In this document: one piece after another, positions 43,122-45,382 of the stretch
Layout of the letters: each line of letters starts with the position of its first letter
How positions within the stretch are numbered: position 1 is the stretch's first letter
NCBI GenBank assembly: GCA_946623125.1
Contig: CAMOQR010000001.1
Span: forward strand, 2,178-66,177
Length of the DNA stretch: 64,000 nt
Direction of reading: 5' to 3'
Source: an uncultured Bacillales bacterium
Lineage (GTDB): Bacteria; Bacillota_I; Bacilli_A; RF39; UBA660
The notes under the pieces: generated by a model
The model's database searches: none
The model's input: only the letters and a program-made list of their open reading frames with translations
What the model was told of the DNA's origin: nothing
Translations under genes and position numbers: made by a program

Positions 43122-43421
43122 TTACACACCAGAAATAGTGTTTGTTGCTGCAGCATCTGCAGCCTCATTAGCAGCAGTAACATTATAAATATGAGTTTTC
43201 ATTGCTACAACCTGATTATAAAAAACCTCATAATTTTGACGAATAGTATTATAACGTTCATGAGCCTCTTCAGCACCAGCACTAGCCCAATTAGCACCAT
43301 ATAAATTATTCATAATACCATCAATATCATCAAAAATGCCTTGAATATTATTAGCGTTACCTAAAACAGCATCAGCCAAACTTCTAGCACCTTCATAATC
43401 TTTCTCTTCAAATTCATTCAT
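43122..43421 (-). CDS. WXG100-family (EsxA/YukE-like) small helical protein, W-x-S variant
   Basis: 99 aa with a central ...LYGANWASAGAEE... and a C-terminus ...TNTISGV (compare YukE ...NQIRG); no signal peptide. Confidence 0.55.
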   Translation of the reverse strand: MNEFEEKDYEGARSLADAVLGNANNIQGIFDDIDGIMNNLYGANWASAGAEEAHERYNTIRQNYEVFYNQVVAMKTHIYNVTAANEAADAAATNTISGV

Positions 43422-43435
43422 GATACGATTCCTCC

Positions 43436-43735
43436 CTAAAATAAATGTGCACCAGCACTAGCATTTTCTTCTTCAGTACGATTTAAAATATCAGCACCTT
43501 TAGTAATAGCATCACCTAAATCATTCAAAAGAACACGAAAAGCATCCAAATTTTTAGCCTGCTCTTGATAAGAATTTAAAAACTCTCGAGCAGAAAGACC
43601 CTTCCAGATATTCATCAAACTATCAATATTATTTCTCAAACTTGATAATTCATTTTGTAGATATTCACTATTCATAACAGTATCTCTACCATTTGAACTC
43701 ATACCACCTGTATTTGCTTGTAATCCTGTAGACAT
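43436..43735 (-). CDS. WXG100-family protein (canonical WKG)
   Basis: 99 aa with a central NIWKGLSAREF in a helix-turn-helix layout. Confidence 0.65.
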   Translation of the reverse strand: MSTGLQANTGGMSSNGRDTVMNSEYLQNELSSLRNNIDSLMNIWKGLSAREFLNSYQEQAKNLDAFRVLLNDLGDAITKGADILNRTEEENASAGAHLF

Positions 43736-43818
43736 ATTACAACCTCCATTCTAAATAAATTATAACATCATTTTATAAAAAACAATAGAAACTAAGAATA
43801 AAATGACAACAATTTACA

Positions 43819-44106
43819 TTAAATACTTTGACTAGATAAAGAATCTTCCAAATCTTGAATACTCTTAGATGCTAACTTAATAAACTCACCAAACTGAATC
43901 ATATAATCTGCTTTTTTTATAATTTCATCCTTCTTTGAAGTACTTTGAGACACAAAAGAATCCTTAGCAGAACCATTCCAACCAGAAAGATTACTACTGA
44001 TTACAGAAGAATAATTTGCAGTAGCAGTTTTTAAGTCATTTCCTTTTTCAATTAATTCTTGACCTACACTTGAAACAACATCAAAGTCACATATATATTT
44101 TGCCAT
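43819..44106 (-). CDS. Small LXG/WXG-like helical protein, paralogous to the N-terminus of the upstream hydrolase
   Basis: SNLSGWNGSAKDSF matches the LXG-domain segment of B. subtilis YeeF (SEFSGKGASNIKAF, recalled from memory). DFDVVSSV...NLSG aligns with MAVFLLDTDTVSSV...NLSG of the 418-aa protein. Confidence 0.5.
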   Translation of the reverse strand: MAKYICDFDVVSSVGQELIEKGNDLKTATANYSSVISSNLSGWNGSAKDSFVSQSTSKKDEIIKKADYMIQFGEFIKLASKSIQDLEDSLSSQSI

Positions 44107-44125
44107 AAAACACCATCCTTTTTAT

Positions 44126-45382
44126 TTAGGCTCCTACATAACGTAGAACACCATCCCAAGAACCATGATAATTTCTCACCGTTATCTCTTGTCCCGTTAA
44201 ATCTGCAGGAGAATTATCACGAGTACCTGCAGCAGCAACAAGTTTTCCATCTCCAATATACATCTCTGTATGATGATTTTCTCTTAAAACAACATCTCCA
44301 GGGAGCAAATCGTTAACATTAGGATTCCCTGGAATCCAAACAAAACCAACCTTAGTAAAAGTAGAACGCATATTATGAGTTGTGTTAGCACCAGCAGCCT
44401 TAACCGGTATTCCAGCAGATTCAAATGCTGAAATAACAAAAGAAGAGCAATCATAACTAGGACTTCCCCAACGTGATGCCTGAGAGTATCCATGAGAATT
44501 ATCATTGGCAATATTAATCGCCCAATCAATAGCATTATTAATAATAGAACTAACTGTATAACGATGATTAGCACCAATATTTTGAATCTTTACAATACGA
44601 TCCGAAATATTATTTGTAATATTCTCGTCATTGTTTTCATCATAATCTTCATTAACAAAGAACCTAATTTCTTCTCTATCTCCATCCGTAGTTTGACCAA
44701 TAATACATTTAATCTCTGTACCATCATCAAGAGTAAAGACAATAACATCTCCAACCTTACCTAAAGATTCATGACAAGAAATAACAAACATTCCCCCAAT
44801 TTCTGCAATACCAAGTGCACCATATTTAAAATCTTTGTGATTAACGATTTCCTTACCTTGAGCTGATAAAGATGCAACGGAGGTTAAGATAGAACCAAAA
44901 ACTGGATTTTCAAGTTGAATATCAACAGGCTCTCTTTTATAAGTAGACGCGGCAACTGTAGAACCAGCAGATGCAACTGCACCACCACCAGCAGCAACAG
45001 GAGCAGCAGAAGCATAAGAAGCACCACCACCACCAGAAGATGCAGAATAAGTTCCACTTGAAGAAAATCCTCCAGCAGAATCATATACACTACCAGAACC
45101 AGAATTTGCTCTTTCTTGAGCAGCACCAAATCTCAAATCATTTTGCAAAGACATATGAGATACCACAACATCATTAATAATAGTTGCCGTATTCGAAATC
45201 TTAATAGAACAAGCCTCTAAATTGGCTGCTATAACAGATTTTGCTGAAGAAAAATCAAAATCAGTACAACTTGTATCATATCCATTAACAGTTCCAGATA
45301 AATTTGAAATCTTAGAAGCCAAAGTAGAAAAAGTAGATTGGACAGATGAAACAGTATCCGTATCTAATAAAAAAACAGCCAT
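44126..45382 (-). CDS. LXG/WXG-like N-terminal domain, Gly/Ser/Ala linker, unknown middle domain and C-terminal NlpC/P60 cell-wall endopeptidase
   Basis: C-terminal NlpC/P60 Cys and His motifs (YDCSSFVISAFESAGIP; LLPGDVVLRENHHTEMYIGDGKLV). N-terminal 90 aa with NLSG. The linker is SGSGSVYDSAGGFSSSGTYSASSGGGGASYASAAPVAAGGGAVASAGS. There is no signal peptide. RBS GGAGGTAA. Confidence 0.6.
   Translation of the reverse strand: MAVFLLDTDTVSSVQSTFSTLASKISNLSGTVNGYDTSCTDFDFSSAKSVIAANLEACSIKISNTATIINDVVVSHMSLQNDLRFGAAQERANSGSGSVYDSAGGFSSSGTYSASSGGGGASYASAAPVAAGGGAVASAGSTVAASTYKREPVDIQLENPVFGSILTSVASLSAQGKEIVNHKDFKYGALGIAEIGGMFVISCHESLGKVGDVIVFTLDDGTEIKCIIGQTTDGDREEIRFFVNEDYDENNDENITNNISDRIVKIQNIGANHRYTVSSIINNAIDWAINIANDNSHGYSQASRWGSPSYDCSSFVISAFESAGIPVKAAGANTTHNMRSTFTKVGFVWIPGNPNVNDLLPGDVVLRENHHTEMYIGDGKLVAAAGTRDNSPADLTGQEITVRNYHGSWDGVLRYVGA

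Follow-up and report, generated by a model that had tools for sequence, protein, structure and literature searches.

A detached cassette of WXG100-family proteins and a signal-less wall hydrolase in an uncultured Bacillales bacterium: a probable substrate module of type VIIb secretion

How substrates of type VIIb secretion systems (T7SSb) pass through the thick cell wall of the producing bacterium is described in reviews as an open problem (PMC10765036; PMC13492133). EssH of Staphylococcus aureus, encoded in the ess locus beside esxA, is a T7SSb-dedicated peptidoglycan hydrolase of the CHAP papain fold; it is non-lytic, has no immunity protein, is needed for type VII components and substrates to pass the wall, and carries a Sec signal peptide, so that it is explicitly no type VII substrate itself (PMC13059805). 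Genes for CHAP proteins, which are predicted peptidoglycan hydrolases, also occur at streptococcal and enterococcal T7SSb loci, where a functional link to type VII secretion is not established (PMC13492133), and one lies at a T7SSb locus of S. agalactiae (PMC10765036). The LXG/Lap toxins (Tel of S. intermedius, YxiD of B. subtilis, EsaD and TspA of S. aureus), whose export is EssC-dependent, consist of a helical domain for targeting at the N-terminus and an enzyme at the C-terminus that varies, are encoded alongside small helical partners and swap their modules (PMC9600955, PMC10765036). In the EatA/TapA1/TapA2/EatI system of Mycobacterium abscessus, an enzyme that degrades the wall and bears a bundle of helices at its N-terminus is exported, along with small helical partners, by a type VII system (ESX-4), and NlpC/P60 domains are among the commonest predicted Tap-linked payloads (PMC13444075). 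Type VII toxins known to act extracellularly have adjacent secreted or membrane immunity proteins (PMC13444075; PMC10765036). In the 2012 census of polymorphic toxins, Tox-NlpC/P60 was listed solely with export by the type VI secretion system, PVC and TcdB/TcaC. In this study, we analyzed four genes, P1 to P4, at positions 43122-45382 of a 64,000-nucleotide stretch of DNA (the window) from an uncultured Bacillales bacterium (contig CAMOQR010000001.1). We propose that they are probably a T7SSb substrate module, detached from the machinery, for the export of wall hydrolases, which are likelier to act on the wall of the producer than as toxins.

The four proteins of the cassette

The gene for P1 (44126-45382, minus strand; the open reading frame (ORF) is that of the initial annotation) encodes 418 amino acids (aa). 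Its C-terminus, residues 276-418 (44129-44557, minus), is an NlpC/P60 cysteine peptidase domain of ELLD/Amidase_5-like type, as had been recognized from the sequence: Pfam ELLD (6.6e-10; 39.6 bits, cutoff 27), Amidase_5 (3.1e-6) and NLPC_P60 (9.8e-6; 25.9 bits, cutoff 23) all exceed their curated cutoffs, and the best Foldseek match of the fold is MepS (8xup_F, 2.6e-3). In 22 relatives, D311, S313 and S314 never vary and C312, H371 and H385 hardly do, which together with the profile scores places P1 in the NlpC/P60 family with a conserved catalytic triad of the Cys-His-(His/Asp) type; the domain is predicted to be a peptidoglycan endopeptidase or amidase. Residues 150-275 (44558-44935, minus) form a double-psi beta-barrel (DPBB) domain of about 120 residues that had been overlooked and that probably binds glycan strands or acts like a lytic transglycosylase. 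The AlphaFold2 model, made for P1 alone among the cassette proteins from an alignment of the 22 relatives, renders residues 150-271 as a confident beta-rich domain. It gives residues 95-149 (44936-45100, minus), a Gly/Ser/Ala-rich linker that varies in length and sequence among relatives, as disordered, with a predicted local distance difference test (pLDDT) score below 50. In residues 1-94 (45101-45382, minus) the model places helices at 8-33 and 45-94, with a mean pLDDT of 74-83 in blocks of 10 residues over residues 11-80. This predicted two-helix hairpin, here called module C, has no W-x-G and is a putative type VII targeting domain.

Neither a signal peptide nor a membrane segment is present in P1, its first 8 residues being free of K and R and its maximum hydropathy being 1.26. 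The N-terminus had been described as LXG/WXG-like; it has neither a Pfam LXG match nor a WXG motif, and its predicted hairpin is related to P2 instead (hhalign of module C against the P2 profile, 89%, E=2e-6). A search of 1.84 billion representative proteins gave 202 matches to module C at E<=0.001, and in 149 of the 150 matches listed, mostly in proteins of 250-780 aa, it starts at residue 1-6; this position at the extreme N-terminus in nearly all of them fits a targeting domain. One library match, P0294 (3579 aa), aligns with the module 21 times over, in separate stretches (32% identity), and may be a giant repetitive protein of hairpin-like units or a compositional artefact. About 15 relatives of P1 are full length, whereas what hundreds of shorter proteins (about 300 aa) have in common with it is the catalytic domain only; some of the latter bear a precomputed N-terminal WXG100 match. 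P1 of the window is a fusion of what are usually two genes, one for module C with DPBB and the other for NlpC/P60, and the same fusion is found at the related loci L018, L019, L060 and L062.

The small proteins match the WXG100 family and not an unrelated one, and two of them pass its Pfam cutoff (PF06013, 27.3 bits), as the initial annotation had foreseen. P3 (43436-43735, minus; 99 aa, W-K-G) does so clearly (1.3e-8, 35.4 bits; TIGR03930, 2.1e-11), and its profile recovers from the PDB the EsxA structure 3zbh (3.4e-9) and S. aureus EsxA (2e-5). P4 (43122-43421, minus; 99 aa) has W-x-S-x-G replacing W-x-G, with W45, S47 and G49 invariant, and barely passes (3.2e-6, 27.7 bits). EsxA structures were not recovered when the P4 profile was compared with the PDB, and the resemblance to YukE that had been ascribed to P4 belongs to P3, the EsxA/YukE-type protein of the cassette. 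P4 is the probable dimer partner of P3. P2 (43819-44106, minus; 95 aa), a free-standing relative of the N-terminal module of P1, had been called LXG-N-like; it has no LXG match, contains a true W-N-G, falls short of the WXG100 cutoff (E=0.011, 16.5 bits; TIGR03930, 0.0028) and is related to P3 (hhalign 95.7%, E=9e-9), and its profile gives weak EsxA and EsxB matches in the PDB (about 4e-3). None of P1-P4 matches Pfam LXG, DUF3130 or DUF3958 at E<=1. The motif reads W-N-G in P2, W-K-G in P3 and W-x-S-x-G in P4, and W-x-G is absent from the hairpin predicted for P1. This set of WXG100-family small proteins, with a hydrolase fused to a related hairpin, agrees with the earlier description of the genes as type VII substrate-like.

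The four minus-strand ORFs lie as first placed, co-oriented and tightly packed, with gaps of 19 nucleotides (nt) between P1 and P2, 83 nt between P2 and P3, and 14 nt between P3 and P4. The intergenic region upstream (45383-45484, minus) holds a GGAGG ribosome-binding site, read directly from the sequence 8 nt 5' of the P1 ATG as expected from the initial annotation, and weak -35/-10 candidates. A private promoter, which had also been claimed, is not demonstrated, since promoter matches are no commoner in the cassette region than in shuffled sequence (11 sites vs 14.1 +/- 4.2). An Rfam scan found no riboswitch or leader at the cassette, its matches in the window being RNase P class B and two T-box leaders elsewhere. 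P4 ends 17 nt from the convergent FemAB gene, so that an immunity gene cannot fit there; with only 19 nt between P1 and P2, the earlier statement that no immunity candidate follows the hydrolase stands.

Related loci and the secretion machinery

Relatives were gathered by context look-ups and by scanning species-representative genomes once with the profile of P4. This yielded 28 additional loci of species-level relatives, every one in a metagenome-assembled genome (MAG) of an uncultured gut or rumen bacterium that bears the label Bacilli, Erysipelotrichaceae, 'Tenericutes' or 'Mycoplasma sp. CAG:877'. These loci hold P3 and P4, usually with P2 (25 of the 28), alongside one to seven signal-less hydrolases. 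P4, with 59-77% identity at 27 of the 28 loci from the scan, is the most conserved cassette protein, and across most relatives P3 and P4 show 59-77% identity vs 51-57% for the neighboring MurJ; this conservation beyond MurJ and the constant gene sizes make the cassette look functional. The hydrolases are modular. Their N-termini are of three interchangeable types: module A (about 135 aa, with W-x-G), module B (about 100 aa) and module C, the type of P1. Module A aligns with P2 (hhalign 86%) and module B with P4 (92.7%, E=4e-7). At L004, two neighboring genes carry a near-identical module A and differ in payload, NlpC/P60 in one and glucosaminidase in the other; the module-A hydrolase of this locus has no Pfam LXG match. 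The payloads comprise NlpC/P60, glucosaminidase, Phage_lysozyme2, DPBB, CHAP, Peptidase_M15_4, Peptidase_C39_2, one alpha/beta-hydrolase esterase and a few unassigned domains. Apart from the esterase, those with a family assignment belong to wall-acting families or to peptidase or glycan-binding folds, and together they cover both glycan and peptide bonds; no nuclease, NADase or pore-former is among the family-assigned payloads. Moreover, the cassette hydrolases lack signal peptides: 77 of 78 hydrolase-type cassette proteins, P1 included, have no transmembrane-like or signal-like segment. Immunity-type genes are absent from the cassettes, 24 of the 28 having no gap above 150 nt and the gaps in the other four holding no membrane or lipoprotein candidate.

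Some modules occur alone, with no catalytic domain. Free-standing module A (136-148 aa) is encoded at L024 (8055-8486), L028 (505-951) and L030 (8844-9254), and free-standing module B (97-102 aa) at L020 (3550-3858), L031 (9354-9647), L033 (4030-4332 and 6541-6843) and L034 (8366-8668). The free module B always directly follows P2, which suggests that P2 and module B are a cognate pair. Cassettes outside the MurJ-FemAB slot repeatedly have an ORF of about 171-191 aa within or next to them, at L011 (5958-6473), L021 (5897-6415), L032 (5879-6400), L016 (2391-2918) and L020 (8988-9515), all on the minus strand, and at L027 (7484-8059, plus). Those of L011 and L027 have no significant Pfam match, and those of L020 and L027 have an N-terminal motif in common and low hydropathy. 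This ORF could encode an accessory factor or an inhibitor.

The initial annotation had called the cassette an orphan, and for this stretch of this genome the description holds: the window contains no ORF above 913 aa, Pfam scans of 30 other ORFs in it gave no type VII component, and tblastn with the clade's EssC and EssC-adjacent proteins found nothing, in agreement with the earlier remark that EssC, EssB, EsaA and YukD are missing. Scaffold extensions of about 9 kb beyond each window end added none of these four, so that no ess locus sits immediately outside the window either, and EssC, the T7SSb ATPase described by TIGR03928, is absent from the window and its extensions, a result that concerns this stretch and not the whole genome. 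The distance first given, 40 kb on either side, was overstated on the right, where the window reaches 18.6 kb from the cassette and about 27 kb with the extension.

For the system as a whole the term orphan fails, since in relatives the cassette is physically linked to EssC. At L007 and L031 the gene directly after P4, the end of the trio of small genes, encodes a 1519-aa protein with FHA and FtsK/SpoIIIE domains. The two proteins are 34% identical; that of L007 scores 955 bits against the EssC equivalog TIGR03928 (cutoff 778 bits) and its homologue at L045 941 bits, and that of L031 is assigned by its Pfam architecture. The EssC family has 405 matches, several of them annotated EssC of 'Bacilli bacterium' MAGs. 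One EssC variant, P0173, comes from the BioSample (SAMN02144230, sheep) and NCBI metagenome assembly of the window species; its slot reads FemAB-MurL-MurD-enolase-EssC-...-SecG, and at L007 the hydrolase cassette is inserted there before EssC. About 14 other species carry the cassette with no EssC within 10 kb, so that separation of the two is normal and no sign of loss. EssC very probably lies elsewhere in the window genome, given its prevalence in the clade, its adjacency to the cassette in two divergent lineages, the integrity of the cassette wherever it is whole, and the conservation of P3 and P4 in excess of MurJ. The EssC genes beside the cassette in relatives and common in the clade also make superfluous the previously unrecognized export partnership that had been raised as an explanation.

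The ess locus of the clade consists of EssC, a translationally overlapping conserved 84-aa protein and, after it, six helical proteins that are also conserved, each about 100-205 aa long (L007, 10465-17399; L045, 10001-17352; L048, 10001-16999; L052, 4001-11016). The 84-aa protein was considered as YukD/EsaB and set aside, as it gave no Pfam or PDB sequence match. No close P3 orthologue stands beside EssC in four EssC loci, and thus the only clear EsxA-type gene of the clade is in the hydrolase cassette. Just upstream of EssC, between FemAB and enolase, a MurL epimerase and Mur ligase pair is encoded (L045, 5935-8641; L046, 1493-4199), which we take to resemble the alternative route from L-Glu to D-Glu in peptidoglycan precursor synthesis and which would hint at unusual wall chemistry in the clade. 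At a single locus, L052, the gene directly upstream of EssC, encoded on the other strand, is an Acyl_transf_3 gene (2715-3860); this is the family of the peptidoglycan O-acetyltransferase domain, and the gene could bear on self-protection against muramidases.

Role of the cassette and its chromosomal setting

P1 is probably made in the cytoplasm without a Sec signal, and its 94-residue N-terminal hairpin, a probable member of the WXG100 superfamily, would serve as export signal. The hairpin may pair with a free WXG100-family partner, P2 and/or P4, to give a helical bundle that would be recognized by EssC, the ATPase presumably encoded elsewhere in the genome, and P3 and P4 are probably the co-secreted EsxA-type pair. 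Outside the membrane, the DPBB domain would bind or cut glycan strands and the NlpC/P60 domain would cleave stem peptides. The target would be the wall of the producer, either in autolysin-type remodelling or in opening a local path through it for secretion, in the manner of EssH. The analysis shows the identities of the domains, the lack of signal peptides, the modular build, the physical linkage to EssC in relatives and the lack of immunity-type genes; we infer the export route of P1 in the window organism, the pairing scheme and the target wall. In a more far-reaching version, which we offer tentatively, T7SSb would have been co-opted in this clade so that a cell's own peptidoglycan hydrolases leave mainly by this route, the hairpin replacing one protomer of a WXG100 heterodimer and the machine being a minimal EssC apparatus without the wall-spanning EsaA. 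The protomer-replacement scheme is based on the resemblance of modules A and C to P2 and P3 and of module B to P4.

The cassette is a vertically inherited feature of the core genome among wall-synthesis genes, and no island. The window has a G+C content of 28.6% and is core chromosome by its Pfam content (FtsY, RNase J, RNase Y, a Mur ligase, RecA, PBP1, CCA enzyme, Der, SpoIVA, EzrA, LeuRS and others); since it encodes SpoIVA, the host probably sporulates. As earlier reported and as Pfam agrees, the flanking genes are wall genes: a YkuD L,D-transpeptidase lies beyond the MurJ/Polysacc_synt-type flippase directly upstream (45485-47137, minus; Polysacc_synt 9.6e-27, with relatives also matching PF03023 MurJ), and past the cassette comes the convergent FemAB-family peptidyltransferase (41773-43104, plus; FemAB 1.2e-80). 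The MurJ slot is common to L001-L006, L009, L010, L014, L018, L019, L024, L025, L029, L030 and L060-L063. The transpeptidase gene (47195-48628), between Fic and MurJ, is particular to the window species, and Fic directly adjoins MurJ in L004, L060 and L062. The window species was found in sheep-rumen metagenomes, where all four cassette genes have the same sizes on every contig that is long enough; shorter contigs from further samples give partial views of the same cassette. A look-up of the exact P1 sequence returned no record, and the P3 sequence did retrieve matching contigs.

The suggestion that P1 is an endogenous wall-remodelling hydrolase is thus a live possibility, and it is slightly favored over antagonism, some weight being left to other outcomes. 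Firstly, immunity-type genes are lacking, the payloads are wall-acting and the slot among wall-synthesis genes is fixed in the core genome. Secondly, in L007 and L031 the cassette heads the ess locus, as does essH in S. aureus. Several points weigh against the model. The cassette family is known from genes alone. The N-terminus of P1 matches neither WXG100 nor LXG in Pfam, a sequence comparison of module C with the PDB found no match, and the assignment of the module to the WXG100 superfamily hangs on the single profile-profile link to P2. On the same scaffold, EssC was not found within about 52 kb left and about 27 kb right of the cassette. At L007, L045, L048 and L052 the 4-10 kb around EssC contain no Pfam match to EssB/YukC, EssA, EsaA or YukD; the machinery is therefore atypical, and the clade's ess locus may be a minimal or atypical T7SSb, or its membrane parts may be encoded elsewhere.

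Attempts to place an EssC in the window genome likewise gave no help. Assignment of the EssC contig L045, from the same sheep BioSample, by tetranucleotide composition was uninformative, because its correlation of 0.959 is below values for clearly different species. A location just past the RNB-family gene to the right of the window was considered by synteny and dropped: this gene and the RNase R of L045, which is linked to SecG, are only 40% identical, against 80% between L007 and L045, and it is therefore probably a paralogue. A search for the RNB protein, meant to extend the scaffold, returned fragments only, at <=58% identity. Blocks of NCBI accessions (MBP5678782 vs MBR, MDO and MBQ numbers) did not join a window-type cassette and EssC in one MAG.

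The strongest alternative is that the cassettes are an arsenal of T7SSb-exported bacteriolysins that lyse Gram-positive competitors, the producer being protected by its wall chemistry, for example by FemAB cross-bridges. The producers of lysostaphin and zoocin A are protected in this way by the FemABX-like Lif/Epr and Zif. The shuffling of modules and payloads and the one to seven hydrolase copies per locus resemble arms-race effectors at polymorphic toxin loci and speak for this alternative against our model, and T7SSb is best known for interbacterial antagonism. Wall-targeting type VII effectors are also known, namely TelC (PMC10765036), EatA and predicted NlpC/P60 payloads in Mycobacteriales (PMC13444075). 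Moreover, one or two FemAB genes adjoin the cassette in at least 10 related species, and FemAB lies near EssC in L007 and L045. However, FemAB stands among MurJ, MurD, MurL and TrmB as a housekeeping gene would, and changes in cross-bridges would not shield the bonds cut by NlpC/P60, glucosaminidase and lysozyme-type enzymes. The adjacent immunity protein that is usual for extracellularly acting type VII toxins is not interspersed in the examined cassettes, and inheritance of the cassette is vertical, with no island. The FemAB gene beside the cassette is most likely housekeeping, its candidacy for self-protection being speculative, and we consider the bacteriolysin explanation somewhat unlikely.

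Bacillus has signal-less amidases that act in mother-cell lysis. That the cassette is a true orphan or relic, its T7SS lost and its genes decaying or their products released otherwise, such as by mother-cell lysis at sporulation, would accord with the distance to any EssC on the scaffold, the encoded SpoIVA and the failure to assign an EssC contig to this genome, but is very unlikely in view of four intact genes of constant size, conserved catalytic residues, P3 and P4 conserved more than MurJ, and the other species that also lack a nearby EssC though it is common in the clade.

Some further features of the window genome lie apart from the cassette. The AT-richest part of the window (23-25% G+C), directly upstream of spoIVA, holds a 661-aa ORF without Pfam match (20862-22847). 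At 52579-52947 and 52973-53155, a T-box leader precedes a 122-aa ORF without Pfam match whose end overlaps the start of leuS by 8 nt, and an ORF of 122-129 aa occupies the same position in L001, L004, L060 and L062. Two full-length acetate kinase paralogues (26655-27860 and 28897-30099) stand about 1 kb apart with a 274-aa ORF between them. About 2.5-4.5 kb past the right end of the window (L055, 12587-14562), a TED/SpaA-domain protein is followed by a sortase, a pilin-like surface protein cassette in the window genome.

Significance and comparison with known systems

These observations matter because they bear on how T7SSb substrates cross the wall and because they describe a wall-directed, immunity-free set of substrates. 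EssH, the only dedicated hydrolase known, is Sec-exported and staphylococcus-specific. In the present case, wall hydrolases that resemble type VII substrates are encoded in sets throughout a clade, have no immunity genes and in some species head the ess locus. If they act on the producer's own wall, T7SSb would gain a housekeeping role in wall remodelling, and this would be a natural system in which a secretion machine exports its own path-clearing enzymes; export of own hydrolases by EssC would be a direct answer to the question of wall crossing. If they serve as weapons, no earlier T7SSb effector family in the literature searched is devoted to peptidoglycan lysis, and this one would work with no inhibitor-type immunity. 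In either role, the three WXG100-like modules extend the targeting domains of T7SSb beyond LXG. We found no description of batteries of WXG100-fused peptidoglycan hydrolases in Bacillota in the open-access subset of the literature, which is not proof that none exists.

Beside the lysostaphin/Lif and zoocin A/Zif pairs, the cassette has an adjacent FemAB gene for which resistance is a candidate role; the enzyme here is NlpC/P60 and not M23, and it has no Sec signal. The EatA/Tap system differs in being an actinobacterial T7SSa with partners encoded upstream, a dedicated secreted inhibitor (EatI) and antagonism that has been shown. For the CHAP genes of T7SSb loci, the reviews describe no WXG100-like N-terminal fusion and no multi-enzyme cassette such as is found here. 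The likeness to EssH lies in the class of enzyme and in the locus, as the hydrolases of L007 and L031 stand at the head of the ess locus. However, P1 and its relatives have no Sec signal and carry WXG100-like modules, so that they are not of EssH type, and in place of a single essH gene there are one to seven enzymes of differing bond specificities.

The general plan is that of the LXG/Lap toxins, with a helical N-terminus as putative targeting domain, an enzyme that varies at the C-terminus, small helical partners and modular swapping. It differs from them in several respects: no protein of the cassette belongs to LXG, DUF3130 (Lap1) or DUF3958 (Lap2); the targeting domain is a WXG100-sized hairpin of 90-135 aa, in contrast to about 200 aa for LXG; the partners are encoded downstream in the cassette and not upstream as for LXG toxins; no cognate immunity gene follows the enzyme; and the payloads are almost exclusively wall-directed, whereas LXG proteins carry nucleases, NADases and membrane toxins. 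The cassette belongs among T7SSb substrates as a variant with almost entirely wall-directed enzymes and no immunity genes.

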